This document shows, piece by piece, positions 23,607-61,474 of a stretch of 64,000 bases of DNA. The DNA is from Elsinoe ampelina (Eukaryota). Every line of letters starts with the position of its first letter. Within the stretch, counting starts at the first letter, position 1. The translations under genes were made by a program, and so were the position numbers. The notes under the pieces are model-generated. The model made no database searches. It saw nothing but the letters and a program-made list of their open reading frames with translations, and had not been told where the DNA came from. The stretch lies in NCBI GenBank assembly GCA_010093995.1, contig ML992506.1, positions 1,567,508-1,631,507 of the forward strand, in the 5' to 3' direction.

Positions 23607-25598
23607 ATATCTACTACTAGTTTAACCTCGGGTAAACATAGAAGGTCTTTTAGTATAGAAGAACGAAGTAGGCCTAAGTTAGAGGTAGAACCCTTCTATA
23701 GAGACTATACCTACTTAAGGCACTTCCTTGTTTAACTTAAAGCCTTCTTTACTCTAGAGGGAAATAAGTACGCTAACGACGCGGCAAAGGTCCTCTATAC
23801 TAGGATACACCTTAAAGGCGCCGCCTTTAGGTAGTTCGAGCCTTATATAAGTAGCTACCTAGATAGATAACTAGGCCTAGATATAAAGGCTATTTTTAAG
23901 AGCTTTAGCATCTTCTAGACAAAGATTAAGTAAGTCTTTAACGTATCTAATAAGAAACGCATCGCTATAATAAAGATCTAATAACTACGACAATATAGGT
24001 CTATAGCCTAGTACTATTCTTAGTTCTAATAACTTATAATATATCTAGACTAGGACGATAGTACTAAACACTTAGTATTCTATTAAGGACTAAGCGACTT
24101 AGTTAAAGACTAAATAATACCTAAGCTGCCTAATAGCCTTTAGGAATTAGTAGATACTATAATTGCTATTAATAATAGACTTTATAAACGACGTATAGAA
24201 CGTTATAGAGAATATAAGGTAAATACTAGATATACGCGTTTCTCTCGAAACTATAGAGACTCTATAGAACTTAATACTATACGCGAAGGCTACTCTTTAT
24301 AGGTACGAGGCTATAGCCGTAGAGGAAAGTTCCTTAGTAGAAAAGAGAGAGAGAAGTATAGACGAGACAACTTATATTTTAAGTATAAAAGACCTAGGTA
24401 TTAGGCTAGGGACTACCGATAAGAGGCGCTAGCTAATAGATTATATATAATAGTTGCTAGGCTAGTAGAGAAAAAGGCTAACACTACTATAGAAGACCTA
24501 ATAACCTTTAGCGTAGGTAAGGAAATATAGAAGAAGTCTATAATAACTCGAGAGGTAGTAGAATTCTCTCTAGATGTTACGCTTAATATCTCTATAACTA
24601 ATAGCAAATAATAAAGCTAATACGCGACACTATTATAGATAGTATATTATAATAACTCTTATTACATTTACTTATTAGACAAGTAGGGATCTAGTTAGTT
24701 TCTATATAAGCTGTCTAAGTATAGGCAACTAACGAAATAGCTAGACTAGGAACCTAACCTAGAAAGGCTCTCTATAATTGGTAGTAATAGTAACTAACCT
24801 TAGAAGGTAGTTAGTAACAATTACTAATATACGATTATCGAGACGAAGTATTAGGACATAAGCGCTATATAATAATATAGTAGCCTTACCTTTAGCCTTT
24901 ATAGCGAACTATAAGGAAAGGTATATTATATATTACTCTAGAAATGTACAAATCTAAATTATAAATAGTACTATACTATCTACTTACACGATGTACTTAG
25001 AGAAGAAGCTATTAGTCTTAAATACACTACGGACTTCTTAGTAATTAAAATAGGTAGTACTATTCCCTATAGCTAAGTAAGAGAATATACTTAGTGTAGC
25101 CTTACTAACTATAACTATACTAGAGGTAGTAGCGACGAAGAGAAATATAATAAAGAATATACCGAACGACTATAATATAATAATATAGATAAGAACTTAT
25201 CTAATAATAACAATAATAACAACAATATACTACTACTAGGTAAACGACTTAAAGTATACCTTACAGGGATATAGAGGAATTATATAATAATATACACCTA
25301 CTACTAGAATAGGACACAATAAGATAAATCTATATAACTTGTTTTTGTCTTTAATACTAATGCCTAGCTATACCTAAAAGAAATAGTTATACTAATATAG
25401 GTATATAACACTACTTAGTATAACTAGTAGAGAATTATTAGACTTTATAGTTACTAAGGGACTTAGGCGCTAGAAGTTTACCTTACTATATTAAATAGTA
25501 ATAAAACATAACTTGCCTAATAGATATAGTACTAATAGTAGATACGTGTAGAAAGAGATTAGCTACTTATCTAAGGAGCTACAATAACAAAAAACTAG
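23607..25598 (+). pseudogene. gag: gag (RIP-degraded, unusually long, about 660 codons)
   Basis: Gag-like PKLEVEPF...HFLVQLKAFF...HLKGAAFRWFEPY. A CCHC knuckle C-x2-C-x4-H-x4-C sits at 24375-24416 (Cys/His read as Tyr after RIP). The frame ends at A AAA AAC TAG. The start is approximate. Confidence 0.85.
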
Positions 25599-28500: not shown

Positions 28501-28970
28501 AGAGAAAGTTTATCTCCTTAGTAAAAACATTAAAATAAAGTAACTAAGTAAGAAACTTAACTATACTAAGCTAGGACCCTTTAAGATCCTAGAAAAGAAA
28601 AACAAGAACGTATATAAACTAGAACTACTAAGACATATAAGGATCTATCTAGTCTTTTATATATTACTACTAGAGAAAGTACTATAGAATACTATACCTA
28701 GACCTATTGAACTAGATAAAGAAACATAAGAGCTATAGTATAAGATTAAAAGAGTTTTACGTTATAAACTTATAAAAGGAAAACGCTACTATCTTATTTA
28801 CTAGAAGGGATATTAGTATAGCGAAGTAACATAGGAACTAGAGGAGTACCTTACCTCGTAAGTAATTCTAAATTACTAGATTAAGAACCTATCCTAAGTA
28901 AACTAACTAGACAAACCTAGTACTCTAAATACTAAACAAAAATAAGAATGTCTAAGGAAGATTACTTAAC
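25596..28970 (+). pseudogene. pol: pol (protease, RT, RNase H, integrase, chromodomain), in the -1 frame relative to gag
   Basis: De-RIP motifs: DSGA (about 25724), PKKDG.LRMCIDYRKLN (about 26375), YLDD read as YLDN (26699-26710), LETDASD (about 27137), MDFI, HPQTDGQTER (about 28145), GPF (about 28574) and YLIHWKGY...TWEP (about 28790-28840). The end is approximate. Confidence 0.93.
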
Positions 28971-29514
28971 TAATAGAAGCACCTTAATCGTTACTAAGTA
29001 AGGAACTCTAATTAGAGTCGGGCATAAATAATTACTAGTTCTATAGTAGGACAGGATCCACCGACAATAGTATTTCCTCCTGCTCTAAGACTTAAATACA
29101 AGTCTCTTCTAGAGAGATTACTTTCTCTACCTTATTCTTTAACTTTTATATCTCTTCGCGTAGGTAAAGCTTATCGCCTATAGCTCTTTAATAAGCCTCT
29201 TTTACCTTTTTATAAGCTTCTTTAGCTTTCTTTCTAGTAGCCTTAGCCGTAACTAATTCCTTTCGTAAATAAATACACTTAGACTAGAGACGCTACTATT
29301 TTAATTTTGTTACTTAAATATTATAACTCGAGTAGTTACTTACGATATACTAGCTATAAATACCTAACCGAACGTAGACTTTATAGTCTAACCCTTTCGA
29401 CTTATAACAAGAGTAAGCTTATAGCATGTTAGTTCTAAATAATTTAATAAACTTCGAGAGGTTCTTTCGTATAGATATACTAGATTTACTATGCCTTTAA
29501 CAACTAGGAGGCAT
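28966..29514 (-). pseudogene. Antisense accessory ORF of the retrotransposon (about 182 codons): Zn2Cys6-like Cys cluster plus coiled coil
   Basis: Intact ATG at 29514 and a single frame with only TAA/TAG stops. The literal read AYSCYKSKGLDYKVYVRLGIYS*YIVSNYSSYNI de-RIPs to C-x2-C-x6-C-x8-C-x2-C-x7-C, followed by an E/K/A-rich heptad region. Confidence 0.75.
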
Positions 29515-29588
29515 ATTTAGTATATAGCGTATAAGGACAAGAAAGAATACTTACTTATTAGAATAACTCGATTAAGAGAGAAGAGTAA

Positions 29589-30051
29589 TATTATAAACTA
29601 GTAGAATAGCTAAAGCATAGAGATACTAGGACTAATTAAACTACTAGGGTTATTACGTAACCTAGCTCGACGTTTACCTAGTTCTCTATCTTCTTTAGTA
29701 GCTCTACCTTAGGGACTATAGAGTACGTAGGTTACTAGCGGACGTATACTCTATATTGCCCCCGACTCTCGCTATAGAGTATATAAAGTATATAGAGTAT
29801 ATAGTAAAGAACATATATATATAAGAGTAGTTCTTACCTTATATAAGTACTATAGTTAACCTTATCTAGATAGTAAACACTAGTATTACTAAGGCTAGCC
29901 TTTATAATACTATCTAATTATACTTTATTATCTATAAGATATACCTTCTCTAACTTTTACCTTAGTGCTATACTACTATAGAAGTAGAACTACCTTGTTC
30001 TTAGCTTAGCTTAGACTACTAGCGTAGGCTATATTTAGATAGTTTATAACA
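29589..30051 (+). repeat. 3' LTR (463 bp)
   Basis: Starts tattataaac and ends gtttataaca. Colinear with the 5' LTR, with transition differences. Confidence 0.95.
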
Positions 30052-33000
30052 CTTATATCTTTTAAGAAAGAAGTAAGAGTATAAGGGCGTAGTATATAAG
30101 CTTTAATAGAAGAATAAGAAGTGCTAAAGAACTCAAGGGATAGTCGAATTTAGCGGATTATAGCTCTAGCTACCTTAGTAGTAGTATAAATAGCATAGTT
30201 AGTATACTCTTTAGCGAGTAAAAACTACACGTCTACTAGTTTTAATTTAGCTATCTAATAATTAACTATAATAGTAACAACCTAATTAGAGTAGTATAGT
30301 AACTATTATATCTTTTTTTAGCTTTAATTTATTAGTATTCTCTATAGACTTCTAGCTAGCTAAATTTAATAACGAGAGGTCGATACGAAGTATAATATAC
30401 TAAGCCTAGAGTAGCTTAGTTAAACTTAAAACGACTATACTCTATAATTGTGCTTAGTCTTTCTTCCTATATACGAACTCGAGTATTACCTTAGACAACG
30501 TTAAAAGTTGTTATATTTAGTCTTTGTATATCGTAGCTATCGCTTAAGAGTAAGCTTAGTAACCCCTAATTCTATATAGCGTCGAGGTAAACTATTAATT
30601 ATTAATATAGACTCCCTAAGATATACTTTACTTATAACTATTACGTTGTATCTTCTAGGCTTATATACTATACCTAGTAAGTAAGAATCGTCGTAGTATA
30701 TATAGAGTAGTATAAGTAATAGACAATAGTGTTTTTAAAAGTAATAGAAGGCTATATTAGGTATAGTTACTAGCTCTAATTACTATAGGTTAGTAGTAGC
30801 TCCCTCTAAGAGCACGAACGAGAGCTATTACACTCTACGCTATAAATGTTTAATATAATAAGGTAGTACTACTAGTAAGTAACTTGCCTCTATTAAGTTA
30901 TAAAGAATATTTTAGACATTATAGATTTAATAAAGCTATAACATAAGGACAAGGCAGGTTTAGTGCTCCGTCGATATAGCCTTATTTAAGGTAGTATAGT
31001 TAGTAGATTTAGGCGGTTTTCTTAGTACTAGCTTCGTATAGGAAGGAAGTAGTAAGTATCTTCTCTAGTAAGGTTATAATAAGGTTATTAGTAAGGCGAG
31101 GTAATTAAGGTAGTCTTTAGTTATTAGAATGTAACTTACTTCTATAACTATCTATTTTTAACTATATAGTACTATAGTAGAGAAGTTACATAAATTGTAT
31201 TTTACTATTCTTACTATATTTGTATAAAAGTAGACTAAAACTAGACTAGATATTTTCTAGTATCTAATTATTATCTATAGAAGGAAATTTTTAGCTAAAT
31301 TAGTTTCTAATTCTATATATAATATAAATATAGTCTTATTTAGCTCTAGTATAATAGTCTTATAATATATCTATATAGATTTCTAAACTATATAAAGCTA
31401 ATAAAATAAGTAAATATATTAAAATTTTTTTATATTACTAGATTATACTTAAATTGAATAATATTTAATACTAGATATGCTAAAAGGGACTTATAATAGT
31501 ATAATTTCTAAGCGAGATACTAGACTCTACTAGAGATAGTAAAAATCTACCTAGTAAGTAATCTATATACAACTTTAGAAATTTAATATTTTAATTATAT
31601 ATTATATATTAAATATCTTAGCTAAAGATTAAGCTATAGCAAAGTAGTAAAGTAGTTACTATTTGTCTCTTTATACTCTATTTAAATGTTATAACTAATT
31701 TATTAATTAGGTAAGTAACTAGAAATTAGAGGCATTTAAACCTCGATATAAGATATTACTTCCCTTCGGGAGCGTAGCTACGAATTCTACCTTTATTAAG
31801 TATAGCTTTTTGTCCTTTTATAGTCTTAGAGTACTATAGAATCGATAGGTACTTGTTTTAGGAAAGTATATAACAAAATAGAAGTATTATAGTAGTAAAA
31901 CGTTAGGATTTTAACCTTAAATAAATATATATATTATGCTATAGAGACTATAACACTCTACTTTACTAATAATACATTTCTCTTCTAGAGCTATAAATGA
32001 CTTTAAAAATTTGCCTAGTTTCTATAAAGTTATAGCTAGCCCCTAAGCCCCTAAACCCTTAACCTCCTAGGCGTCCTCTAAACCTACTAGTTAACTTCTA
32101 CTAACTTAGCTATTACGTTTCAGTAAATATTCAGAGCTTATATGCTATTAATTCATTGCTGGTTCAAGTAGTAATGCAAGATCTAGTATTCGAAGAGCGG
32201 GCGGCCGGCTATAGCGACCTAGCGTCCTTAACTACCGTCTTTACTAGTCCCTCCTCCACTGTTCGCCATAATAATTCCATTACTCCGGAAGCCTCTCTCG
32301 ACGATCCCATGATCATAACCTTTGAAGCCCCGACGCCTGAAGCCGACTAGCCTCTACCCTCCCCCTCTATTCCATTACTACTAGCGGCAACGAGCAAGAC
32401 AATGCAAGCGACGAAGAGATCTAGATAGCGAGCCTACGACTTCCGACCACCTCGATCATCATGCAGCTTAGGGACTTCCTGGGCACAGCACGAGTACGCT
32501 GCTAGAAAGTCATGGACTGCTTAGGACCTAGCGAGTCCAGCCTAGAGAAGGTTAAGCATGACATGACCGGTCTTGACAAATGACGCAGCCTTAGAATTTT
32601 GAAGACGCATCCTCGACTGCCAAGCCACTCCTATCGAATCACTCTGCAGATTCGTGGTCATGCTTCATGAGATCGTGTACAAGATGTAGTCTGACTGTGG
32701 AACGTACAGCTTGCTTCACGCCCATGCCCTTTGGCGTCATGCTATGCTAAACACGGCGACAAGCGCAGGACTGAGATTGCTGCGGGAAGGCTTTTGCGGC
32801 TCTGTCATGGTAGTCCAGTCTGAAGTAAGTACCTACCCAGCCTGGTTTTGCTGCCCCGCTTGCAGGCTGCGTATGCTAGATAAGCGCCATAACATCTGCT
32901 TCAACATCCACCCTGAGCTCCCTGAAAGCATTAGGCGGTCCCATGTCATGAATCCTGTCTCCAAGCCTCAAGGACGAAGAGTATGGTCTTGCGCACCACA

Positions 33001-46333: not shown

Positions 46334-49300
46334 CTACACATCCTTGACGCGCACTTCTCGCTGCGATAGATTGCTTCCCATCCCGCCGATGTCTGTTTCC
46401 ACCAGCTCAATCCCGCTCAAGCTTGGATATCGTTTGCTGAATTCCAACTCCCAATCTCGGCCATCCGTCCCCGCCGCACTTGGCCGTCTGAGAGATGACG
46501 CTGTATCAGCAGTCGGAGACTCTACAGGAGACTCTACAGGCACATCATACAAAGGTTTATTGCCAGGTCCCGCCTCCGCAACTCCTTCTTGATCTTTTGC
46601 GAGCAGTGCCGCGAGTCGCGACCCTTGAGACTTGTCGTTAGCTGCACTCTGCCACTCTGATCTGCTTGGTGATTTGACTGGCGATTGCGGTGCTTGCTGC
46701 CTCTGACCCGTCAATCCGGAGCGGAGACCGACAGGCTTGGGCTTTGCAGCTGGTTTGGGACCGGTCCTGTTTATTCCTGGAGGCGCAGATGCAGACACCG
46801 GTGCATGTCCGGTGATAAGTTGTTGTGCCGCCTCTGGTCGCTGTCTTCCCACTACTAGATCTTCGCGAGGTTTTGGAGACGAAGCATACCCTCGACGTGG
46901 CTGATTGTAGTCTGTAGGGGAGATCACTTGAGCATTATCTGGCAGTGGTCGACGTGAAGGGACTGCCTCGGTCGGAGAGTCGTCGGTATATCGCCCGTAC
47001 CCAGCGGCCGTTCGAGTCACTGGTGCGGATCGTCCCTCGTCAAGCAACGACTGTACTCGCTGTTGTATTGAGCTTGCGCGAGTCGCTTGTGGAGCAACCG
47101 GTGGCCTCTCTCGGTATGCAGCAGCGGCATTGGCAACTCGCTGCTCTTCTTGGCTTTGTTGCTGCCTCTCCATTTCGCGTCGCATTTCTGCTGGGATGTC
47201 TTCTGTCTCCTCCAATCCTCCAATGTCTATCAGCGTGGGCCGGGGCGATGCAGAGGTAGCTTCTGACGCAGCGACAGGACTGAGCGGTCGATTGTCGCCA
47301 AAGTCCTTCGTCGGACTCGTTCGCCTCGCTGGTAAGGTTGTCGTCTCTTCTTTCGTTGAATCTTCTCTGCTCATGAACCGTGTCGCGCCCTCCTGCATCA
47401 TGACTGGCGGCATGCTAGCTCGCTTGCTCCGTAAGCTCAAACTGTTCAGGTTCTGCCGCTCCCACGTATCCACATCTTGCTCTAGACTTCGAAGATATGC
47501 CGTGTCGTCCTTGATAGGTCTACTCTCCTCTGGACTAGCGGCGCTAGACAATCGTTGTCGACTAGACCTGCGACTGCCATGTGCTGGAGGACTCTTCGCT
47601 ACAACGCTTTCATGATCCCGTAAATAGTCAAGATTGGAACCCACGTAGGCTGCACTCACTGGCCGGGACCGATTGTTTGTCGATCGTGCCCTCGTGAGAT
47701 TTGATTCATTCTCGCCGCCGAATGACGGTTGCGACTGTGGTAGAGGCCGGGATGGAGGAGCCGGGCTCTTCGAGGGCTGCGATTCTGGGCGTGGTGATGG
47801 CTGTAGAGATCTCGCCGTTGCGACTGAGGATCTCTGGAGCTCGCTCGTAGCCACAGATGATCTTGGCTGACTTTCCGAACGGCCATGGCTTGGTACTCGC
47901 CAGATCGGCCGATTATTGAATGCCGGAGGTGTCGGTCTTGACTGTGGAGGAGGCGTCGAGGAAGTCATGGTACCAGTGGACACATATGTTGACCTTTGTG
48001 GTATTGGCTGTGCAGGCAACGGCTTGTCAGATAGTGGGATTGTAGTGCTCTTAGCCGGCTGCCTTGGCGGTGCACTTGCCGTAGATCGCTCGCTGACCTT
48101 GATGTCAGACGGTCTAACAGTTTCGCGCGGTGGCACCGCTGAAGCTTTGCTTCCCGCTTCAGGTATACTTCCTACAGGTGTTGTCATATCTTTCGAAAAT
48201 TCGAATCCAGGCTGCTTATCCATGGTGATGGAGAATTCGTCAAGAGAAGGGAACTTCTTGGACAACTCGTCGACCGCTCCAGCCCGAACATTGAAGTCCT
48301 TAGAGTCCAGCGCAGCGAAAGGATCTCCTTTGACAGACCCTTTGACAGGAGAAGGGCTTGCTTTCGGTCTAGATGCTTGCGGCTGCTGGGTCGGCGCGGT
48401 CGGCCTGCCCCGACGCATGGGCGTGATGTCCGGGAGAGCTTCCTTCTCTTGTTTCGGTGCCCCAACACTTATTCCGGCCGGCGGAGGCGAAGTGACTTGC
48501 GGTGAGGAGGGAGGCAGACGTTGGTTCTTGACGTCTTCGGACTTGGATCTATTCGAGTAGATCTGGAAGTGTCAATGTGCGGCCCACTCACGGAAAAGGT
48601 AGGTACTCACGTCTTTGATGGGCACGGGAGTTCCTCTGATACTGCAGACCTCTTGAATCACTTGGTAGATGTTTGGCCTATCCTTGGGATTCTCTTTGAG
48701 CATCACGGCTAATACTGTCAGTCGCTGCACGTAACGAATGCTGGGTCTCCTTACTGATGAGCCCACGAAGCCGCTGGGAGAAGAAGGGATGGTGTGGGAA
48801 CTTGAACTTTGCGTTCAAGATCGCCATTTGCCCAACCTCCTCGAAAGGCGTAGTGTAGTAGCATAACTTGTATAGTAAGACCCCAAGCGCCCATATATCA
48901 CTCTTCTCGTCGATCGGCTGCTTACGCCAAACGTCGATCATTTCTGGACTCCGATACTGCATGGTCGTGTGTCTCTGAACATCATCCTCGATCAACCGTG
49001 CTTCGGCGGCATTCGTTGCCGCTGGTCGTGGAGGAGCCGTACTGCCGAAATCGCATAGCTTGTATAGCGCGTTTGGAGAGGTTGCTGGCGGTGCCGAAAT
49101 GAGGATGTTCTCAACCTTGAGATCTCTATGAAGAAGCGGTGGCTTCAAGTAGTGCATAGTAGCTACACCTTCTGCGGTGTCGGAGAAGATCTTTAGGATC
49201 TCTGGCTCCGTCAAGCGATATTGTAGTCGGGTATTCATAAAGTCGATGAGCCCTCCACCAGCGCAGAACTCCATCAGAAGGAAAACCTCGTAACCTCCAC

Positions 49301-49670
49301 CTTTCAACTGACTGGCGTGGCTGTCGAAGTATCGAACAATGTGCTTGTGTCCTTGTAGCTTCTTCATCGTCTCCACCTCTGTCCTCATGTTCGCCAGTGC
49401 TTCTTTGTCCGGTACCGCGACTCTCTTGAGCACCGCCGTCTCGTACTTGCCATCTTTTGAAGGTACTCGTACAACATAGACATGAGCGAATCCTCCCTCG
49501 GACAGGTACTTCTCGATCACAACCCGATGCGATCCCACCTGAACTTTCGTGCCTGGTGCAAAGGTCCCTGGTGGTGCGCTAGTGACAGCCATCTGCTGTG
49601 GTCGATGGCCTGGAACTGCTCTTTGCGCCATCTGGCTTGATCCAGGTGCTGGGTAATTCATGGTTGCCAT
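46334..49670 (-). CDS. Ark1/Prk1 (NAK) family Ser/Thr kinase; introns 48754-48709 and 48610-48563
   Basis: LSEGGFAHVY, HRDLKVEN, LCDFGS, TTMQYRSPEMID and KLCYYTTPFE, plus a long P/S-rich tail with DPF and FSKRYPSLSGIE. Confidence 0.93.
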
Positions 49671-50059
49671 AGCTGAAAGTGGATGCCTGAGAACCGACCA
49701 GGTCTGAGGGGGGATTGCTCTACCGCATGTCTTGTGAGGTGGGTCGGTGAAAGCTGTATGTACAGGGCTCCTCGGTATCCAAGTGTGAAGTCAATTGCTT
49801 ATGAAAGGCAATGTCGCGAGCCCGTCGAGTCAAGTGGTCGAGACGGTTGAAGCTCGTGCCTTCGTCATGGGGTGGATGCCGAGACCATTTCAGGGACCGA
49901 CTCGTTGCAGTCTCCCTTCAGCCGCACGCTTCATCGTGCTTCCTTTCTTCCATCATCAATACATATTTCAGTCATCGACACGCCTCCCTGAAACTCATCA
50001 TATGACAGTAGACAGCAGTGTCAGCCACGATGCGAGCTCTTGGTTACTACACATGTATG

Positions 50060-50920
50060 CTATGAAGGCCATTTGACAGCAAGATGGTCGATCAACCATC
50101 TCCGGATCTTCTCATAATCTCTACATTTGTGCCTGGAGTCGAAGTCTGACCTCTCCCCAATCGGCGCCTCGGGGTCGATTTCAACGAGCATGGGTGCCGT
50201 ATCGCCATAACACATCAATGTCTTCCGGAGCTCTTCGATACAATGGTCGGTGTGCATGCGCCGACCCACCGCTGTACTCTTCTGCGGATTGGTGAGGTTG
50301 TGACGCTCATAGTAATCGCCCCAAGTGTACTGGCGGATGTAGTCGAGACAATGCAGCTGATGGAAGACACCGATAGCCGCTGCGTAGCCGCCGCCCTTGT
50401 CGGATGCCACTGTCTTCCAATTCTTTTCTACTTTGACCCCGGTCACGAGATGGTGCAGTTTATCACGAGGTACGCTGACTTCACCATCTGTCAAAGTCAG
50501 AGTCCGCACAGTATCGAAGGTGAGTTGCATACAATCCCACAATTCTTGCCACAGCTTCTCTCGCTCTATGGTTGGTGGACCTCGGAATGGGGTCTTATGG
50601 GAGAACATGTTATCGAAATTGTGTTCGTAGTATTCGACCGCTTCGTTGGCAGGGGCTAGGATTATCAGCAAGCAGGAAAGAATAGGCTGAGAAGTCCCAC
50701 AATAGACGCTCAATCTTTTGACACACTCGGCTTCAGCCACGGGAAGGAACATGAAGATGGCGGCGGCGATGGATATTCCAGCCGCGAGAGACAGCATCAT
50801 CAGAGAGGCTACAACGGGCCCCGGCCATGGCACTAGGCTATTGACTTTGGGCTTCCTGTGCTGGCCCAGCAATGCCTCATTTTGCTCATCGTCTTCGCTC
50901 TGATTGTGATCGGAGTCCAT
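50060..50920 (-). CDS. DUF3328 (UstYa-like) oxidase; two 45-nt introns (50700-50656, 50532-50488)
   Basis: N-terminal transmembrane anchor, FRGPP..E....W, two HxxHC motifs (FHQLHCL and HTDHCIEELRKTLMCYGD) and C-terminal HKCRDY. Confidence 0.93.
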   Translation of the reverse strand: MDSDHNQSEDDEQNEALLGQHRKPKVNSLVPWPGPVVASLMMLSLAAGISIAAAIFMFLPVAEAECVKRLSVYCGTSQPILSCLLIILAPANEAVEYYEHNFDNMFSHKTPFRGPPTIEREKLWQELWDCMQLTFDTVRTLTLTDGEVSVPRDKLHHLVTGVKVEKNWKTVASDKGGGYAAAIGVFHQLHCLDYIRQYTWGDYYERHNLTNPQKSTAVGRRMHTDHCIEELRKTLMCYGDTAPMLVEIDPEAPIGERSDFDSRHKCRDYEKIRRWLIDHLAVKWPS

Positions 50921-51204
50921 TGCCTTTCTTAGAGTTGTCAACGACAGTGACGATAGAGGCTAGAGATCAACCCTTACTAGACATGTATACTGGCCGAGAT
51001 GGGCCGACCAAAGTGGTTGGACGAGGAAACCTGGATTCGGCCAGTCTCTACATGGTCAGCTGATGATCAGCTTACCAGCTTGACACAACACACACGCCAA
51101 TCCCGGCAAACCACTTCCGCAACCCCTTCGGTCTGTCTCCTGATCAATGTCGTTCGAAATCATCTCGATACGCTATACAACGTACTACACGAGACCCATA
51201 CACG

Positions 51205-51372
51205 ATGCAAGTGCACACCATCGTCACGACGCTTCTGCTCGCTACCTGGCGATTCGTCTCTGCTCTGCCGATACCTATCAACATTCCTCCTGGCGCCGAC
51301 ACCTCAAACATTAGCTATGCCTACCAGGATGAAATCGACGCCGCAGATCCTTTCGAAGTTCTAGGAGAATAA
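51205..51372 (+). CDS. Small predicted secreted peptide (55 aa), candidate RiPP precursor
   Basis: MQVHTIVTTLLLATWRFVSA-LPIPINIPPGADTSNISYAYQDEIDAADPFEVLGE*. Hydrophobic signal peptide ending V-S-A followed by LP, A at -3 of the ATG, and 284 bp divergent from the DUF3328 start. Below the size cutoff of the ORF track. Confidence 0.72.
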   Translation: MQVHTIVTTLLLATWRFVSALPIPINIPPGADTSNISYAYQDEIDAADPFEVLGE

Positions 51373-52035
51373 TGTGTCGGAGACCTAGCTAGCAGGGGAT
51401 GGAGCTATCAGATCAATCGAGACACTTGGGGACCATGCAATTATCGGCTTCATATGATCAACACCGAAAGGTCAGTTGCTGTAAGAAGAGGATTAAGGGC
51501 GCTCGGGTTGAAGAGAAGCAAGAGAAGCATGACACGCAGAAGATGGTCGACGGATGATTGGGTCATGGTACTCAGATACTCGAGTATTTGTGGTTCGATG
51601 CACTTCTCGCTTTCGAGAGCCAGGCAACGGACGACAATGGCAGTGTTCAGGTTCAAGGTCGACAATAGTGACGGCCAAATTGTAGACTCGATCATGTAAT
51701 ACATTTGAGCGCAGAACAAGTGCGACGATAGAAGGCTGCGTCTTGTGAAACAGTCCCTATTCGAGATGCGCATGATCAATGATATTGTTATTGTCCTAGA
51801 CCGAGAACGGCGTAGCTTCCGGTCAGGCGACCTCGAGATTGCTACACTCGGCAGGTACATCTGCACCTTTTCGCGACTGACAACAAAGTGGCGCTCGTTA
51901 GTTCATCATGCCGCATGAGCTGAAACGCGTAGCTATCAGTCAGCATATCGCGTTAAACACAATGTAGCACCGATATATACAGCTCTCTTACCGCTTCTCG
52001 AGCATAAAGCTTGTCCAAAGCTTGTCGATTCTATC

Positions 52036-55000
52036 ATGACTTCGCGGAGCTGTCTATCAGCTGCCGACGGCGTGTTCGGTCCTAGTGTCGACGGCTGTCG
52101 TGATGGCTTCGACTTCACATTGTCTTTTGAGAGATACCTATTCAACCTGGTCCCGTCAGTCTTATTCATTGTAGCTGCTGTGCCGCGGGTCTGGTATCTG
52201 GCACGCAAGGAACGATGTATCAGTCATTCCCGCAGCGAGTACACCAAGCTGGTGAGTCTCAGCTCTCGGTGACCCGGTGAAGTCATTCACATCTCCGCAG
52301 GCCACAATTATAGCTCTTGGAGTGACACAGCTGGCTCTTCTGGTGCTATGGAGCCGCGACAGAGGACTCACTGCGTGGGAGCAGTCGGTCGCCGCATACA
52401 GCTTGTCACTATTCACCTGCATCGTAATGGTCCCACTATCATATCTGGAGCAAGCACGATCATTACGGCCTTCTGTACTGCTGAATGCTTATTTACTTGT
52501 AACCGTCATCCTTGATGCCGCTGTTGTGCGGACATTATGGTTGCTCGACAGTATACCGAAAAGCATAACGGGCATGCAAACAGCAGCTCTTGCTTGCAAA
52601 ATTGCCATTCTTATCTCGGAAAGTCAACACAAGCGGAATCGTCTGGTGAAGTCTGTTAACGAGAAGAGTCCAGAAGACTTCAGCGGCTTGTACAGCCAGA
52701 GCCTGTTCTGGTGGTTGAATCGCATCATGTGGCAGGGTGCAAAGATGGTGTTGAGCCCAACTGACCTCTACCCCATTAGCAGTGATATTGCAGCCAAGCA
52801 GCTGAGTGACAGATTCGAGGAATACGCGGTGACTGTAGCTGCCAAAGGCCGGCAAATCCACCTGATATCTGCTATTATCAGTCTTCTGAGATGGCCCATT
52901 GTCCTTGCAGTCTTACCACGCATCGCCCTTCTAGGCCTCACTCTCTGTCAGCCACTACTCTTGCGACGACTCTTGAGCTACTTGCAGGCTGGAGCGCTCA
53001 ACAGAGATGCCAACACAGGGTATGGTTTGATCGGTGCCTACGGCGTTGTCTATGTTGGGATCGCTGTGAGTAAAGACTTCCACAAACAAGACCAGCGGAG
53101 CTGACATGAATGGCAAGCTTGTATCCGCTCTATACTGGCACCGTCAATTCCGGTTTCTTACCATGATGCGCGGCATCTTGACAACTGCCATCTACAAGAA
53201 GGCCCTTGACTTGGACATCAACGCTGAAGATCGAGCGGCTTCCGTCACACTCATGAGTACTGACGTCCAGAGGATCATCAGAGGTTTTTTGGACATCCAC
53301 GACATGTGGGCGAACATTATTCAAGTCGGCGTTGCATCGTACTTGATCGAGACCCAGTTAGGCACTGCCTTCGTCGGGCCTCTTGCTGTTGCCATCGGTA
53401 AGTGCCATCCATTATCATGTATGACCAGCGTCTGATCGATGAAGTCGCTGTTGGAGCATCCCTTGTTTTGGCAAGGTTTGTCACTTTCTTCCAAATGCAA
53501 TGGATCGGAAAGATTCAAGAAAGGATCAGTAAGGTCAACTTTCGACGAACACAGACAGTTATTGACCCTTTCACAGCCTTCATTACATCAGCTCTGGGAT
53601 CCATGAAATCGATCAAGATCGGCGGCCTGGAAAACATCGTCACACAGCTCCTGCACAACGCTCGGAAAGCTGAATTGGATGCGGCGGGCAAGTTCCGGCT
53701 CCTCTCCGCTGTGGCAGTATGCATTGGTATGCAAATTCGAAGAACAAGACCTGTGCACAGCAGAACTGACGTTGAAAAGCCCAGATGCCCATGCTCTTGT
53801 CGCCGGTCATTACATTCGCCATCTATCTTGGCCTGCCAGAATCTCGCGATACCGGAGCAGATGTCGTCAAGTTGTTCACCTCTTTATCTCTTATCGTGCT
53901 CATGGCTGAACCCCTCTTTGGCCTCCTCGAGAGCGTCATGGATATTGTCTCGGCCTTTGCTTGCATTGCCAGGATTGAGACTTTCCTTCAAAAAACATCC
54001 AGGCATGGCTTTGGCTCTCCAGTGATGAATTCGCTGGGTGATCGTAAGTATGCACCAGTCGATGAAAGCCAAGTGATCGATGTTCGGAATGCTACATTCA
54101 CCTGGGAAGGTAGTTCATCGCCCACCCTACACAACATCACAGCCTCTATCCCATCCCGGGATCTGACAATGGTTGTTGGTCCCGTTGCAAGCGGCAAGAG
54201 CACATTGCTCAAGGCTTTCTTAGGCGAGGTGAGGAAGACAACAGGTGAGATGACTGTTCACGCATCAGGCCTGTCGTGGTGTGAACAGACACCGTGGCTG
54301 CAGGTGAGTCAGTGTCCCCTCACAAGAAACAGTCGCTGATATTACAGAACCAAAGCATCAAGTCAAACATTTGTACCTTTGCAGACTTCGACAGCGAATG
54401 GTATCACGCCGTGGTCAATGCTTGTGACCTGCAGCGTGACTTCGACGGCTTGACGAATGGCGATGAAACCATGATTGGCAGCAAAGGTACGGCACTCAGC
54501 GGTGGTCAGAAGCAGCGAATAGTACGTCAATTCCTTCAAGTCGGCGAGACTTGGGGCGGTAACAGCTGACCGTGTAAGGCACTTGCACGAGCGGTGTACG
54601 CAAGACGACAGCTTAACATACTCGATGACGTCCTGAGCCAACTAGATGCAGCCACACAAAAGCTCGTGTTCAGTCGTCTGCTTTCCGAGGGCGGTCTTCT
54701 GCGTCGCGGTGATACTTCCGTCATTCTTGCCACGCATGCTGGTCAGTCCAACGGGATGGTATGATCGCCATTCACTAACGGGAGCAGTGCATTTATTGCC
54801 GAACGCCGATCATGTCATCGTGCTATCGAGTTCCGGTACCGTCCTTGGCCAAGGGACCTATACCAATCTACAACAGGCTGGGATCTTGGATCACTCTGAC
54901 TTCCATAACAGTGCGCCTTCTCCAGACGGCATTGACTCAACGAATTCAGTGACAAAGGACACACCTGCAAGCACGGATGCCGTGAAGGCACCTGACTCCG

Positions 55001-57031
55001 CCCAGAAGATCACTTCAGACCAACGGCGACTGACTGGAGACATGTCGATCTACAAGTACTACTTCAGCAAACTGGACAACAGCATAGTCATCATCTTCCT
55101 GATCCTCCAGATTGCCTACGCTTTCTTTTCAACGTTCCCATGTAGGTCAACTTAAGGGTATAGGCCCTGAACGACGTATTGACTTCAACGCAGACATCTG
55201 GTTGAAATGGTGGACCGATACCAACCAGCAGCAGGAAGCGAGAAACAGCAACTTCTACATCGGCATCTATGCAGCACTTCAAATGGCCGGACTTCTGTTC
55301 GCAGGAGCAACCACAATTTGGTCCTTCAATGTCATGGCCGTCTCAACAGGCACTGCACTACATGACATTCTTGCGAAGACAGTGATGTCGTACGTTTCAC
55401 CTCTGCCATACATTGAATCTTCTGACCATAGTAGTGCCTCATTTCCAGTCCTTGGTCGTATTGACACTGGAGCCATCTTGACACGATTCAGTCAAGATAT
55501 TCAGCTTATCGACATAAGCTTGCCACTAGCTCTGCAAGTTGTCGTCGGAAGTCAGTACAGCTTCAGCGTTCCATGATGCAGTACTAAAGAACGTAGATAC
55601 ACTCATCTGCCTTGGTCAAATGGGCTTGATTGCATCAGCCTCCGCCTATATCGCTATCTGCTACCCTCCTCTTTTCATCATCTTCTACTATGTGCAGAAG
55701 TACTATTTACGTACATCACGCCAGATGCGGCTTCTAGACCTCGAAGAGAAAGCTCCAATCTAGTAGGATTCGTATTCCATGTCACATACACTACTGACGG
55801 TACCGTAGCACTCAATTCACAGAGACTATTGAGGGGCTGGCGACAATCCGAGCATTTAACGGGAATGTGGCTGCTATTCAGAAAAACCATGAGCTGGTTG
55901 ATAAGGCACAGAAACCCTTCTACCTGATGTATGCCATCCAGCGCTGGCTAGCGTTGGTACTGGATTTGATCGTTGCGGCACTCGCCGTAATCATCGTCGG
56001 CGTAGCCGTGGGACTGCGGGATGCAGCTTCACCGGGTTTGACCGGAGTCTCTCTGACACAAATCATCTCCTTCACTTCTGCGCTGAAGCTGTTGATCATG
56101 TTTTGGACGCAGCTGGAGACCTCTATCGGAGCAGTGACTAGGGTCCGAGAGTTCGAAGCAGACACACCCACGGAGCATAAGGCTGATGAAATGGCTGAGC
56201 CGCCTGAGACCTGGCCCGAGAAAGGCACGTTGGAGATGCAAGGTATTCGTGCCCAGTACAAGTAAGGCTCATCCCATCATGCGACGCAGCGAGTTTCTGA
56301 CGACAACAGGGCTGGATCACAGGATTGGGCGCTACAAGACATCGATATCTCTATTGAGCAAGGTCAAAAGGTCGCCTTGTGTGGAAGGACAGGTAGTGGT
56401 AAAAGCACCATGGCGCTGACATGGTCACGACTTCTCGATGAAGCGGATGGCAGTATTTACATCGACGGACTGGATCTATCGACCATCAATCGCACTGTCC
56501 TACGATCTCGTCTGACATACATCGCTGACGATCCCTTCATCCTCCCTGGATCGGTTCGAGACAACATTGACATCTTCCAAGTTGCTGAGGACGAGACCAT
56601 TACCTTGACGCTCAAGAAGACGTTGTTACTGGACGTTGTAACAAGCGCCGGAGGACTGGATGCACCAATGTCGTCTCTGATCCTGAGTCAAGGACAGAAG
56701 CAGCTCTTGAACTTCTCAAGAGCTCTGCTAAAGAAGAACGGGAAGCTTATCCTCCTTGACGAGGCTACGAGCAGGTATAATGATCCTATCTCTCACGACT
56801 TCGTTCGCTGACTGCGAAAGTGTTGATCAAGAAACCGACAAGATCATTCAGAAGCTGATCCGGACGGAGTTCAAAGACCATACAGTCATTGCCATTGCTC
56901 ATCGCCTTGATACGATCCTCGACTTCGACTTTGTAGGAGTCATGGACAGTGGGCGGCTTGTCGAGTATGGAAAGCCTTCGGATCTGCTGCAACAACAGTC
57001 ACGATTTCGGGCACTGCGTGATTCCGCATAG
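52036..57031 (+). CDS. ABCC/MRP-type ABC transporter (TMD0-TMD1-NBD1-TMD2-NBD2), 14 introns
   Basis: N-terminal FGP...CRDGFDFTLSFE; NBD1 GPVASGKS, LSGGQKQR, ILDD; NBD2 GRTGSGKS, LSQGQKQ, LLDEATS, IAHRL. Introns traced by hand at 52252, 53066, 53398, 53529, 53727, 54304, 54522, 54742, 55142, 55390, 55551, 55763, 56262 and 56775 give a continuous frame. Confidence 0.93.
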
Positions 57032-57201
57032 ACGTGCACAGACAAAGGATGGCTGCAGGAGGAGGCATCAGCTTACTTTCCATGTACCACGTCGCCCAAA
57101 TTCGTTTGGAAGCATATCAGGCATCTCCTAGCACGTCGACTTGAAGGACCAGAGCTTCTAGTGTACTGTCGTTCTACAATTCCCCATCTCATTCCCTATT
57201 C

Positions 57202-58142
57202 ATGGCAGAAGTCGAAACGATCAGGGCGGGAGCCTCCAAGGAGGATTACATCCGACAACCTTCGGGTTGGAAAACCACTGATCCAGTGCCTCTCACTCGT
57301 CAATCTTTCCTAGACCTGTTGGCTGGCCATACACCTTTGATCAAGATCCCCAACTTCATATCGTCCGAACAGAGCACTGCTCTGTTCAACCACCTCTCCC
57401 CAGCTTTCACTCCCTACATCCATGCTACAGGTCCTGCAGTGGAGAAGGTTGGCATAGCACAATTCGAGTTCCAAGCCCAATCACAATCCGACTTTCATTC
57501 TCGAACAGGCGACGGTATGGCCCCCTCAAACACTCCATTCTTCATCGCTGATTCGTTCAAGAAAAGCACCGCTACTTCACCGCCGCCTCGCAGCTCCAAT
57601 CTCTCCACTCGTCTCTCACTGCCGTGACTGACACTAACCTCCTTGACAAATTCCTTTCCACTGTCCGCTCCCTCGTCCCCGAATGGGACGTCGATATCGC
57701 CACCGAGCCCGACGGCAGACGCTACTTCGCCGGTATCTTCCGCAAAATCAACGGCGGCACACCCATCCACTGCGACTGGTGCCCCTACGACTGTTTGACC
57801 GAAGACTGGATCCTGAGCAAAGTGACATGTCAAGCGGTCTTCAACCTCTACCTGTCCGAGACTGATGGTGGGGAGACGACGGTGTATGATACGCAATGGA
57901 CCGAGGAGGCTTTGAGGTTCAGGGATGAGGAGACGTATGGGTATGGCAGTGGCCTTGTGGAGGGGAGGCAGAAGGTGACGTTTAAGCCGAGGAAAGGGGA
58001 GTTGTGGTTGTTTAATTCGAGGAATATGCATGAGGTTGCGCCGGTCAAGGGAGAAGGGATGAGGGTGGCGATGGCGAGTTTTATGGGGTTGTTGCCGGCT
58101 GAGGTCACTGGTGGGAGGCCGAGGTTGATGTTTTGGTCGTGA
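57202..58142 (+). CDS. Fe(II)/2-oxoglutarate-dependent dioxygenase (proline-hydroxylase-like); intron 57515-57561
   Basis: HxD motif (PIHCDW), DGGET, distal His in FNSRNMHEV, and a downstream Arg (MRVAMAS). Substrate unknown. Confidence 0.8.
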
Positions 58143-58245
58143 GGGAGTCTGGTGATCGTTGGCCGTAGTCGAATGCAATGATTGTGGTCCCTACGTCCAG
58201 CTCATGAGTGGCTTGAGTAGCCATATTGCTCGGTGTTGTGTTCAT

Positions 58246-59163
58246 TCATGATAGAAAGAGCGTCTCGTAGTGCCGCTGACAGTACTCTGCCAATGAGCCA
58301 GCGACCATGGTCCCTCCAACCAACCAGAAGTTCGTGTAGAACCACCAAGCACAACTCTCCGGCTTCTTCAGATCCACCAAAACCACCATAGCCGCCAGAG
58401 TCACCGCCGTCCCAGAGCACCCGATCAGGTGATACGCCCACCCAAAACCCCCAATCACACCAACCCTCACCAAACACCCAACCTGCACCGCCCCGAGCAC
58501 TGTACACAACGTCTTCGTCTCCCCCCTAAACCTAACAGCCATACTCTTCACCCCAGCCTTGACATCATCCTCCAAATCCTGATGCGCATAAACCGTATCA
58601 TAAATCATCGTCCAAACCACATTCGCCCCACAAAGACACCCGGTCGCCCACCCCCTCCCTTCAGCAAACGGATCCACCCCCACCGCATAACAAGCAGACA
58701 CAATCCCCCCAGCAAACGGAAACCCCAGAATAACCTGCGGGTAATGCGTAAACCTCTTCCCGAACGGATACACCATGAACAGCAAATACACCCCCACCAC
58801 AACCCCCCTGCACTCCCCCGGCCACAACCCCATCATCCCCCACCCCATCCCCGCGAGCACGACCGTGACCCCGTGTCCCTCGAGCGACGTCACCGCCCCT
58901 CTCGCGATGGGCCTGTTCTTGCACCGCGCGACCTGCCGGTCGAAGTCTTGATCGACGTTATCGTTCCAGGCGCAGGTGGAGCCGCGGAGGAGGACGCAGA
59001 AGGGGAGGAAGAGGAGGGCGGTGCGCAGGAGGAGGGAGGGGGGGAGGAGGGTAGCCGAGGTGGAGGCGGCGAAGGCGAGGCCGATGAGGTGGGGGAGGTA
59101 GAAGGCGTAGAGGCCTGAGGGGCGGTCGAGGCGGATGAGTTGGAGGTAGGGGTGGAGGGGCAT
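58246..59163 (-). CDS. UbiA-family aromatic polyprenyltransferase (COQ2/meroterpenoid-PT-like)
   Basis: PYLQLIRLDRP, the first Asp-rich motif WNDNVDQDFDRQVARCKNRPIARG, YPFGKR, the second motif YDTVYAHQDLEDD, and multiple transmembrane helices. No N-terminal presequence. Confidence 0.93.
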   Translation of the reverse strand: MPLHPYLQLIRLDRPSGLYAFYLPHLIGLAFAASTSATLLPPSLLLRTALLFLPFCVLLRGSTCAWNDNVDQDFDRQVARCKNRPIARGAVTSLEGHGVTVVLAGMGWGMMGLWPGECRGVVVGVYLLFMVYPFGKRFTHYPQVILGFPFAGGIVSACYAVGVDPFAEGRGWATGCLCGANVVWTMIYDTVYAHQDLEDDVKAGVKSMAVRFRGETKTLCTVLGAVQVGCLVRVGVIGGFGWAYHLIGCSGTAVTLAAMVVLVDLKKPESCAWWFYTNFWLVGGTMVAGSLAEYCQRHYETLFLS

Positions 59164-59818
59164 GGTGGGTGGAGTGGGAGAGGGGTCGATGGGGTGGTGA
59201 AGGCGTTGGTTGTGAGGGGGTTGATTGATGGTGGGTTGTAGTTGCAAGTTGGTAAGATGGAGGAGAGGATGAGATGTACGGGAGCTGTCGAGCTGGGGTG
59301 ATGTTTGAGTAGGTAAAAATTGGGTTACCGAGGGTTGTGCAGTCTGTCTTCGCCAAGGGTCGGCGGAATGGATCTCTGCAGGGCTGTTAGTACACCTTCA
59401 GTCTATGATCAGATCTGAGAGTTCCTTTGTACCTCTTATCGTGTATCGGTATTCGGGACTGCAGCTTCTTGGCAGTACAGCAGGAGATCGGTCCTATTCC
59501 AGCGTCCTACTTAACAAAGTCCTACTAGTCCATTGTGTCGTTCCGAGGAATGGTCTAACAGTCATTGTAGCTAATTAGCTAGTCTGATGATTATATTTGT
59601 TGCACAACATAAGGTAGGGTCACAATTGAAAGCCCAATGGAAAGGATGACCTCCTAGCAGATGGAACTATAGTGCTGTAGCTGCTCGAGCAAAGAGAATA
59701 TAAGCTGAGATCAGGAGTGAAAGGGTCAGCTTACCTGGCAGTACTTACCGGATCATGCAGATGTGGAGGTTCACCCGAGCGAGTAAAGTGTCACTGGAAA
59801 AAGCTATGGAACCTCAGC

Positions 59819-61230
59819 ATGGCTACTGACATGTCCATGGAGACCCTTGTTGGTGAAATCAGACGCACTTTGGATGCTGTATCTGGTCTGTGCATATCCG
59901 AATGCGAGCAAGGACATCGCAAGGAAGCTCTCGAATTAGCAAGGACGCTCTCAAGGAAGCTCGAGGAACCACGAGAGACTGCATTTCGTCATGCCTTTGA
60001 GGTAAGGTGCCCGCCACACAGCGTTTGCGTGGTATTGATACTCCCTAGTCGCACAATCGAAGTCTCTGTCTTCGACTGGCGGTTGATCTGAGGCTGTTCC
60101 ACACGCTGAGTCGACTGGGAATCGCAACGGGTCAAGAGCTGGCTAAAGAATGTGATGCCGAAGAGCGACTGGTTGGTAGGTGCTCTTGGGTTCCGACTAT
60201 TGCGCACTCTCTCATTGGATGACCTAGTCCGCATTATGCGAATGCTCTCCGCGGAGGGATATTCCGAGGAGATCGCCGAGTGGACGTGGTCACCGACAGA
60301 TTTGACGACAACTATGACCAACGCCTCTCTAGAGGCGTGTGTCGTTCACAGGTAATGTCCCCTGATAGATAAGGCACATTTCGGGAGCAGCGTTGATTCC
60401 GCAGCTTCGATATAACGGCTAGGGTACAATCCCATCTACCGGAATACTTCCAACAAGTCGGCTACCAGAGTCCGACATCCCACAGGGATGGTCCGTTCCA
60501 GTACGGTATGCAAACCGATTTGAGCTTCTTCGACTTCCTGCATGCTCACCCCGAGAGAGCATTGACCTTCGATGCCTATATGACAGGCAACAGAAGTACA
60601 CGCAAGCATTGGCTAGAATGGTTTCCGTTCCGTGAAGAAGTTCTGGATCCATGGATACAGAGGACAAGACATGATGACGATAGCGTGCTCCTTGTGGATA
60701 TGGCCGGAGGTAGGGGTCGCGATGTCACCCTGCTGACGCAACGATTCCCAGAGGCAAGAAGCCACGTCGTTCTCCAAGACCTGGCAGGTACTCTGCAGGA
60801 CTTACGGATGGATCGAGATAAAATCAGCGTTTGTGCTCATGACATTTTCGCTCCGCAGCCAATTACAGGTTCGTGGAGAAGGGCCGAGTCTTGCGCTTAC
60901 GGGCTAATGCTAATGATAGGTGCTGAAATCTACTATACCCACTTCGTCCTGCACGATTTCTCGGATGAACGTTGCGTGATTATGCTCAACCATGTCAAGG
61001 CTGTAATGCGACCACATTCAAGGATTCTCCTCAATGAGATCGTATTACCTGAACAGGGTTGTCCCTCCTTCTTCGCGGCTGCCGACATCACCATGATGAC
61101 CAACCTGTCAGCATTGGCAAGGTCCGAGAAGCAGTGGAGACATTTGATTGAATCTGTTGGGTTGGAAGTGGTCCGGATATGGAAATCGCCAGATGCCGAG
61201 GATTGGGAGGCAGTGATTGAAGTAAAATAG
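59819..61230 (+). CDS. SAM-dependent O-methyltransferase (Methyltransf_2); introns 60002-60048, 60176-60227, 60352-60404, 60869-60919
   Basis: N-terminal dimerisation/HTH region (LRLAVDLRLF), GPFQYG, VDMAGGRGRD, VLQDL, HDIFAPQP, catalytic LHDF and RSEKQW. Confidence 0.92.
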
Positions 61231-61474
61231 AGCCTGCGAGCAATGAACTGAACAGAACAGCATTAGGTTAGCGTACGCTGGGAGACGTGTTTCGATCCAA
61301 ATGGCACTTGATGACTCCGATAAGCCTAAGTTGTAGTCATGACCACACTGTATAAGGACTGGAATGAGAAGACGTCGGAGATCGCATCTTGAAGCCAAGA
61401 CGACCACGCCAAGGCCCCCCGGCGCCACGACAGTGAGGCATAATTGCAACTCAAGCACTCCATTGGTAATCGAC

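Follow-up and report, generated by a model that had tools for sequence, protein, structure and literature searches.

A 55-residue reading frame beside a UstYa/DUF3328 gene of Elsinoe ampelina: a divergent one-module relative of an undescribed family of Kex2-processed repeat proteins

Does a very short open reading frame (ORF) that lies head to head with a UstYa/DUF3328 gene encode a peptide on which the neighboring enzyme acts? The question is raised by a 64,000-nucleotide stretch of the Elsinoe ampelina genome (assembly GCA_010093995.1, contig ML992506.1, positions 1,567,508 to 1,631,507 of the forward strand; hereafter the window, in whose numbering all positions are given), where a 55-codon ORF at 51205-51372 had been proposed, in an earlier note made from the sequence alone, as a single-core precursor of the dikaritin type, i.e. 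of a peptide that is made on ribosomes and modified after translation (RiPP). We find that it is very unlikely to be a chance ORF and is probably a genuine gene of minute size; it is a one-module, divergent relative of an undescribed family of repeat proteins processed by Kex2 (KEPs), and it is not filed here as a dikaritin-type precursor. The best explanation of the data is that the ORF would be a stripped-down, one-unit descendant of this secreted, Kex2-processed repeat family, whose partners are UstYa/DUF3328 enzymes.

The reading frame and its relatives

The ORF (MQVHTIVTTLLLATWRFVSALPIPINIPPGADTSNISYAYQDEIDAADPFEVLGE) starts with the ATG at 51205 and ends with the TAA at 51370-51372; on re-reading, its sequence and coordinates matched those of the earlier note exactly. 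Its parts are the following.

51205..51372, + strand: candidate one-unit precursor peptide ORF, 55 aa plus stop (codon score, family profile)
51205..51264, + strand: signal-peptide-like N-terminus, residues 1-20 (MQVHTIVTTLLLATWRFVSA, then LP), by a crude rule of hydrophobic core plus -3/-1 residues
51265..51297, + strand: LPIPINIPPGA, residues 21-31, Pro/Ile-rich and ORF-specific (unaligned by hmmalign)
51298..51366, + strand: DTSNISYAYQDEIDAADPFEVLG, residues 32-54, C-half module of the family (phmmer, tblastn, profile)

A composition count of the 35 residues after VSA gives no K, R or C, as had been claimed; the sole basic residue of the ORF is R16, within the putative signal peptide, and residues 21-55 are without K or R. 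The ORF had also been called intronless, and a contig assembled from RNA covers it without any joint; an intron extending the ORF was considered too, and is ruled out by the same jointless RNA contigs.

Length by itself is uninformative, as 112 ATG-initiated ORFs of 45-70 aa are found in the window, and at the very same spot three ORFs of 55 aa and one of 121 aa overlap. Coding signal was measured by a codon log-odds score trained on 13 long coding stretches of the window that have Pfam or RNA support. The ORF scores 0.202 bits per codon, compared with 0.09 +/- 0.09 for real 55-codon chunks and -0.05 +/- 0.09 for the other short ORFs outside an AT-rich block (n=108), none of which matches the ORF's value. 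The score is about 0 for the ORFs that overlap it in other frames, and the signal ends at the stop codon (-0.025 directly after it). Past the TAA the frame is open for 109 further codons (51373-51699) and closes 10 nt past the RNA contig; read-through into this extension was rejected as coding (codon score -0.025, no family similarity), and its openness is probably due to chance. The crude signal-peptide rule, which is not SignalP, is passed by seven out of 195 ORFs of 40-100 aa, the ORF included.

An exhaustive phmmer search with the ORF over 1.84 billion representative proteins returned three matches. One match, at E 6.7e-7 over three stretches, is to P0021 (180 aa), in which a signal peptide and a pro-region with KR at its end are followed by three 41-aa units of the form ADPIADSVNYILVLQKDSTETPDAYQDEVDAANPADILG(KR); judged by this layout, it is a textbook Kex2-processed repeat protein. 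The other two, P0022 (792 aa) and P0023 (2983 aa), are long, bacterial-looking repeat proteins without features of fungal precursors, and were set aside as repeat-inflated accidents. Searching with P0021 gave 24 family proteins of 104-224 aa with one to three units each, and a further copy with four units (P0054) is encoded on a metagenomic contig, L001. The hosts are Didymella heteroderae, Didymella sp., Dothidotthia symphoricarpi, two Letrouitia lichen fungi, Colletotrichum chlorophyti and the organisms behind unnamed metagenome or read-assembly records. Members referred to by name are the following.

E8E12_004919: D. heteroderae
N0V86_007573: Didymella sp.
P153DRAFT_401403: D. symphoricarpi
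LQ342_008250 and Q9214_006579: Letrouitia
CCHL11_10122: C. chlorophyti
P0021: the protein matched by the ORF
P0054: the L001 protein

None of the 24 proteins carries a precomputed Pfam domain, and a fresh Pfam scan of six family proteins (five of the 24, and P0054) gave nothing above the cut-off. The family was not found in print among the papers listed by a literature search with motif words, and its motifs do not occur in three supplementary files of PMC7329392, a set of files that is possibly incomplete. In the ESM Atlas, the best score for the ORF is 0.80, to bacterial lipoproteins and under the useful level, and for P0021 the scores are 0.85-0.87, with a cluster of yeast alpha-factor among the matches, which we take as a lead only.

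The 41-aa family unit has a variable N-half (..[DE]SVNYILVL..) and a near-constant C-half (DAYQDE[IV]DA..P..[VI]LG), followed by KR. Residues 32-54 of the ORF align to the C-half and share its LG end (in the family, LG stands before KR or the stop). When the 24 proteins were compared with the whole window by tblastn, the best 40 of 1461 rows all fell at 51298-51384; in the best row the ORF is identical to P0036 at 15 out of 24 positions (E 3.5e-5), and it is identical to P0037 at 13 out of 17 positions over AYQDEIDAADPFEVLGE. A profile built from 49 distinct units gives the ORF frame 24.6 bits (E 1.7e-6, profile positions 18-40) among 1427 six-frame fragments, and the runner-up fragment, with 3.2 bits (E 8), is more than 20 bits behind. 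With a profile of the C-half only, the ORF has 25.5 bits vs 33-37 bits for canonical units. An alignment of 10 proteins has nine invariant C-half columns (D A Y Q. E. D A ... L G); eight of these are preserved in the ORF, and at the remaining one D is replaced by Y38. The constraint that the earlier note looked for on its Tyr-x-Tyr segment (YAY) is therefore seen in part: A39 and Y40 stand on family-invariant columns, and Y38, where the family has D, is specific to the ORF.

The N-terminus of the ORF has a weak similarity to the N-termini of the family: the mean local score is 21.2, vs 16.7 +/- 1.75 for shuffled sequences, and 1.6% of 500 shuffles reach it. Just past the signal peptide (51265-51279), the ORF reads A-L-P-I-P, and many family members have A-S-P-I-P or A-S-P-V-P (residues ~18-24). 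This likeness and the slight excess over shuffles hint that both ends of the ORF may be derived from a family gene.

An alternative is that the ORF is a chance ORF in a non-coding stretch (a long 5' leader of the DUF3328 gene, or antisense or promoter-associated RNA), its family match being an accident of database size inflated by repeats. Short ORFs are indeed common (the 112 mentioned above), the matches to P0022 and P0023 are probably accidents of just this kind, and a lone 23-aa match among 1.84 billion proteins is insignificant by itself. But the fungal protein that was matched comes with a signal peptide, KR-cut repeats and UstYa neighbors, a context that the ORF shares and that was not used in the search; no other fragment of the window comes near the ORF in the profile scan; the codon score, the signal-peptide rule and the LG end point are independent of the match; and a leader on the minus strand would hold 11 ATGs. 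We regard the chance explanation as highly improbable, and the homology of the ORF to the family, as judged by these comparisons, as very probably real. Whether the gene works today is a separate matter, and there we lean, with less assurance, towards a working gene.

UstYa/DUF3328 genes beside the ORF and its relatives

Two features adjoin the ORF on its upstream side.

50060..50920, - strand: UstYa/DUF3328 gene (Pfam PF11807 UstYa, E 2e-37, 129.6 bits, cut-off 25)
50921..51204, no strand: intergenic spacer of 284 bp, with the ORF and the DUF3328 gene diverging from it (sequence)

The head-to-head layout holds as first described, with 284 bp (50921-51204) separating the two start codons; this spacer contains + strand ATGs at 50983, 50999, 51052, 51063 and 51147. 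The two HxxHC motifs ascribed to the enzyme are there as well (HQLHC and HTDHC), on invariant columns of the homologue alignment. The gene model needs a correction: two introns of 45 nt, 50656-50700 and 50488-50532, divide the gene into three exons; both are of the GT..AG kind (GTGGGA..TAG and GTATGC..CTGAC..CAG). Both introns are in frame and stop-free, so that the unspliced gene reads as one ORF of 286 aa, and the spliced protein has 256 aa; they were recognized as two 15-aa insertions relative to all 11 aligned homologues. The spliced protein aligns without gaps to Elsinoe batatas KVT40_000571 (P0027) with 95.8% identity, and its nearest relatives are Elsinoe proteins. A hydrophobic N-terminal stretch (VVASLMMLSLAAGISIAAAIFMFL) is visible by eye and is a candidate membrane anchor. 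The 64-kb window has a single DUF3328 gene and a single family match, and these two are 284 bp apart.

Are family genes elsewhere also next to such enzymes? Two metagenomic fungal contigs with a family gene, L001 (20.5 kb) and L002 (2.2 kb), were examined. The features of L001 are the following.

10001-10666, same strand as the upstream UstYa gene: precursor gene P0054, four units
8406-9357: UstYa gene, three GT..AG introns, 262 aa, HQLHC and HVDHC
about 6138-6850, opposite strand: second UstYa gene

The L001 precursor gene lies ~650 bp downstream of the UstYa gene at 8406-9357, and no other typical gene-cluster genes were seen near it. L002 likewise has the 3' end of a UstYa gene followed by a precursor (914-1330). 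The C-terminus of the L002 UstYa protein is identical to that of L001, so the two contigs count as one independent locus; a positional homologue beside related DUF3328 genes, which the earlier note had hoped for, is thus present at one such locus. The N-terminus of the precursor is also identical in L001 and L002, yet there are four units in L001 and two in L002 and P0036, a difference that reflects either repeat copy-number variation or assembly collapse.

In a maximum-likelihood tree of DUF3328 proteins, the precursor-adjacent UstYa of L001 is found among the closest homologues of the window enzyme, within an unresolved polytomy, a placement compatible with shared ancestry of the enzyme-precursor pair. 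The motif is better preserved than the enzyme, with identity of 13 out of 17 (P0037) vs 26-39% (tblastn segments, the two DUF3328 genes of L001), which speaks for a live gene. The orientation of the peptide gene to the enzyme gene differs, being divergent in the window and tandem in L001.

Genes on either side of the pair in the window have to be considered as well.

48678-49670, - strand: Ark/Prk-like protein kinase (Pfam on open frames)
51894..57000 (end approximate), ATG 52036, + strand: ABC (ABCC-type) transporter gene (four GT..AG RNA joints; Pfam ABC_tran, ABC_membrane)
58246-59397, - strand: UbiA prenyltransferase (Pfam on open frames)
60397-61230, + strand: O-methyltransferase (Pfam on open frames)
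61475-64000, - strand: second ABC transporter (Pfam on open frames)

The ABCC-type transporter, UbiA prenyltransferase, O-methyltransferase and second ABC transporter stand together at 52036-64000 and may form a separate secondary-metabolite cluster. Further away, at about 20000-32000, there is an AT-rich block (GC 27-35% vs 50-60% elsewhere) without any ORF of at least 150 aa, which looks like a repeat island degraded by repeat-induced point mutation.

With such neighbors, the ORF might encode a working small secreted peptide that DUF3328 does not modify, i.e. an acidic 35-aa peptide, signal- or effector-like, whose conserved C-half is the active part, as in unmodified pheromones derived from KEPs, while the enzyme serves another pathway (e.g. 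that of the UbiA/O-methyltransferase/ABC genes, all of them next door by Pfam). Mating factors are KEPs in which it is the conserved repeat that becomes the product, and 78% of KEPs have no DUF3328 gene nearby (PMC7329392); DUF3328 enzymes act in non-ribosomal pathways too (PMC12435403). Against this stands the position of the family gene, directly beside UstYa in L001 and L002 and, in another orientation, here: the adjacency has been kept across rearrangement and fungal orders. The C-half Tyr is moreover invariant, and it is usually at Tyr that DUF3328 enzymes form the cross-links of ustiloxin, phomopsin and asperipin-2a (PMC7329392). An unmodified peptide is, in our judgment, decidedly unlikely.

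RNA over the locus and the parts that the ORF lacks

Run X3 is RNA, as its contigs skip four GT..AG introns in the ABC gene and two CT..AC introns in the kinase gene; RNA contigs carry no strand information. One of them covers the pair of interest.

49950..51689, strand-less: X3 RNA contig of 1741 nt, jointless, spanning the DUF3328 gene, the spacer, the ORF and 317 nt beyond

Cover is zero at 49824-49949 and at 51690-51893, which makes contamination by genomic DNA unlikely; the ABC transcript starts at 51894, preceded by an adapter remnant. The X3 RNA is either a + strand molecule, which would be sense to the ORF and antisense to DUF3328, or an unspliced minus-strand molecule, which would have a 769-nt leader (the one with 11 ATGs). 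Its retention of introns points to antisense transcription or to regulated intron retention. As for the transcript that the earlier note called for, RNA does cover the ORF, but the contig is strand-less and the DUF3328 RNA in it is unspliced. The contigs of X4, X5 and X7 are pieces of 183-303 nt only and are uninformative on expression and strand; among other runs with the same organism label, X7 has one 183-nt piece, and X8 and X9 have next to none of the sampled words. Contigs of X4, X5 and X7 match the first ABC exon at 52146-52182 alone (37 nt), each with six differences and with dissimilar flanks, and come probably from a conserved stretch of another gene or organism.

Compared with the family, the ORF has lost much. 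It has neither the N-half nor the pro-region and no dibasic site at all; LPIPINIPPGA takes their place, next to the putative signal peptide. The C-half module occurs once, with no tandem repeat of it; there is no Kex2 site (KR or RR) after the signal peptide; and, for the Tyr core, the ORF has Y-A-Y-Q-D and neither YxI nor YxL, i.e. no YxIx-type core, the NYILV motif of the family being missing as well. A profile scan found no remnant of an N-half and no further unit in any frame of 50921-52035. Family members with a single unit (P0050-P0052, 104-106 aa) still have a pro-region and KR, so the ORF is the only member seen whose unit signal peptidase alone could release.

Which half of the unit would be the core? 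NYILV resembles the YXIX core motif of ustiloxin- and phomopsin-type KEPs as given in PMC7329392. P0041 (186 aa, from an ENA record) has a different N-half in each of its three units (SVNSIIRFV, SVNSLIAVV and SVNSFVVVE, with Ser for Tyr) and a constant D[AP]YQD[EA][VI]DA, which is, as far as can be read from sequence, what a precursor with several cores and one conserved handle would look like; the N-half differs in P0048 and P0049 too. We infer that the core would be the variable N-half, with the constant C-half acting in recognition or as a follower. The core that had been guessed for the ORF (ISYAY) is not supported by this comparison: it lies mostly inside the constant half of the family, and by the usual RiPP logic would more likely belong to a recognition or follower element.

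These losses suggest a further explanation, namely that the ORF is a stranded remnant: an internal deletion in a multi-unit precursor fused the signal peptide to the last C-half, leaving a frame that is open and incidentally transcribed and has no product, with the DUF3328 gene kept for another job or itself decaying. The missing N-half, pro-region and KR sites fit this explanation, as does the likeness of the ORF, at either end, to a family protein (A-[SL]-P-I-P behind the signal peptide, LG at the C-terminus); all RNA seen over the DUF3328 gene is unspliced, and the locus is nearly silent in X7, X8 and X9. Against a remnant, the start codon, the putative signal peptide and eight of the nine invariant motif columns are all in place, and codon and amino-acid usage are gene-like solely inside the ORF, down to the -0.025 just past the stop. 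With no decayed units nearby, the deletion would not be recent, and still there is no drift in the motif. The enzyme gene is intact, too, with its 95.8% identity to the E. batatas orthologue. On balance we think a remnant unlikely, though it is the alternative that we take most seriously.

The preferred reading, a stripped-down descendant of the family, can be carried one step further, to a working, Kex2-independent single-unit precursor that is the substrate of the neighboring DUF3328; we put this forward tentatively, as a possibility a little short of even. Several points weigh against it. SVNYILVL, the stretch of a family unit that is likeliest to be the core, is missing, and the ORF might therefore have lost its function. 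Neither a word-index protein search (no candidate) nor a metagenome scan (440 pattern matches, none confirmed) nor phmmer gave a homologue over all 55 aa, and the link between the family and UstYa is based on one independent locus. The synonymous-only codon score of the ORF is matched by seven out of 108 short ORFs and is weak, hence much of the full codon score reflects amino-acid composition. The DUF3328 gene could belong to the UbiA/O-methyltransferase/ABC cluster and act on a non-peptide product as in cyclochlorotine biosynthesis. Finally, the X3 contig retains both DUF3328 introns, when six out of six introns of the flanking genes are spliced, and no working (spliced) DUF3328 mRNA was seen in the X3 sample; with a strand-less contig and unspliced DUF3328 RNA, co-expression of enzyme and ORF is unsupported. 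Were the X3 RNA a + strand molecule, the ORF would lie ~1255 nt from its 5' end behind many ATGs, barring a shorter hidden mRNA.

Proposed route and meaning

If the ORF is a working precursor, its route could be as follows. The peptide would enter the endoplasmic reticulum, where signal peptidase, and not Kex2, would free a 35-aa acidic peptide equivalent to one family unit. The constant C-half would be the handle recognized by the neighboring DUF3328 enzyme, membrane-bound, with two coppers and dependent on O2, which would oxidize or cross-link a residue in or next to NISYAY (Y40 being family-invariant and Y38 ORF-specific). Trimming by proteases may follow, and export could go through the adjacent ABC transporter. 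We infer translation, secretion, recognition by the enzyme and any modification of the peptide. A complex prediction with the lumenal part of the E. batatas DUF3328 protein and residues 21-55 of the ORF scored 0.00 and, run without controls, is evidence in neither direction. The enzymology assumed here follows PMC12435403, in which DUF3328 is a membrane-associated, dimeric, binuclear copper, O2-dependent enzyme built on HxxHC(x)nHxxHC, and PMC7329392, in which DUF3328 proteins are required for the Tyr-based cyclization of ustiloxin, asperipin-2a and phomopsin cores.

The closest system is the unnamed KEP family itself, with which the ORF shares a putative signal peptide, the constant C-half at the C-terminus of the unit and an immediate UstYa/DUF3328 neighbor. 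It differs in length (55 aa vs 104-224 aa) and in what it is missing: the pro-region, KR/RR and the SVNYILVL N-half. The family, as far as its sequences tell, looks like a dikaritin-type RiPP precursor family. The precursors UstA (ustiloxin), PhomA (phomopsin) and AprA (asperipin-2a) have a signal peptide, for which the ORF has a candidate, and resemble the ORF in having Tyr in an acidic context and a neighboring DUF3328 gene with two HxxHC motifs. They hold many short cores, of the YxIx type or FYYTGY, each cut at KR by Kex2, whereas the ORF is limited to a single unit and has neither a YxI nor, past the signal peptide, any basic residue. The dikaritin-type assignment of the earlier note is thus borne out as far as homology goes, to a family with signal peptides, KR sites and repeats beside UstYa genes; repeats, KR sites and a YxIx core are what the ORF itself does not have. 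The asperipin-2a cluster has a single DUF3328 gene (PMC7329392), as does the ORF locus. Among the window ORFs scanned with Pfam (5 in one scan and 20 in another, of the 74 stop-to-stop ORFs of at least 150 aa), none was seen to encode a tyrosinase, a UstM-type methyltransferase or any other tailoring enzyme of ustiloxin, and none a non-ribosomal peptide synthetase.

Two other comparisons are instructive. The cyclochlorotine proteins CctO, CctP2 and CctR belong to the same enzyme superfamily as the window DUF3328, but act on a non-ribosomal peptide; the UniRef name of the Elsinoe DUF3328 orthologues, 'Cyclochlorotine biosynthesis protein O', is an automatic transfer and not a tested function. 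In lichen fungi, orphan UstY clusters (clans R1 and R2) have a UstY/DUF3328 signature gene and no recognizable repeated precursor, as here; the survey that described them named no precursor and left open 'a single core peptide' (PMC12048977), while the present locus offers a concrete candidate with family homology. For Elsinoe, a preprint uses DUF3328 solely as a neighborhood feature for ranking effectors.

Genes like this ORF are easily overlooked. Current searches for KEPs combine a signal peptide, KR sites and repeats (PMC7329392). The prediction that repeat-based mining would miss the ORF is supported, as it has one unit and no K or R after the signal peptide, and the same is true for KR-based mining; KR or repeat filters and reliance on annotated proteins would each drop a 55-aa ORF without KR or repeat. 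Fungal genomes contain many UstYa/DUF3328 genes, and mining repeatedly reports ones without a recognizable precursor. DUF3328 enzymes that seem to have no substrate may have very small substrate genes that annotation has overlooked, and the present locus is a testable example, evolutionarily tied to a canonical repeat family, with a short conserved motif that can be used for six-frame scans beside other orphan DUF3328 genes. The uncharacterized KEP family, with its minimal cluster of two UstYa genes, is convenient for studying how copper enzymes recognize their substrates. Even as a remnant, the ORF would still record the decay of a precursor gene.

A bolder idea, which we consider doubtful, is that AYQDE[IV]DA..P..[VI]LG is a portable follower-type handle for UstYa-type copper enzymes, and that precursors shrink to Kex2-free mini-genes made of a signal peptide, a new core and the handle. 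If that is true, fungal dikaritin-like pathways would gain their first defined handle of this kind, many orphan UstYa/DUF3328 genes would stand beside unannotated precursors of 50-60 aa, and the Elsinoe peptide would give a new product from its Pro/Ile-rich LPIPINIPPGADTSNISY stretch.

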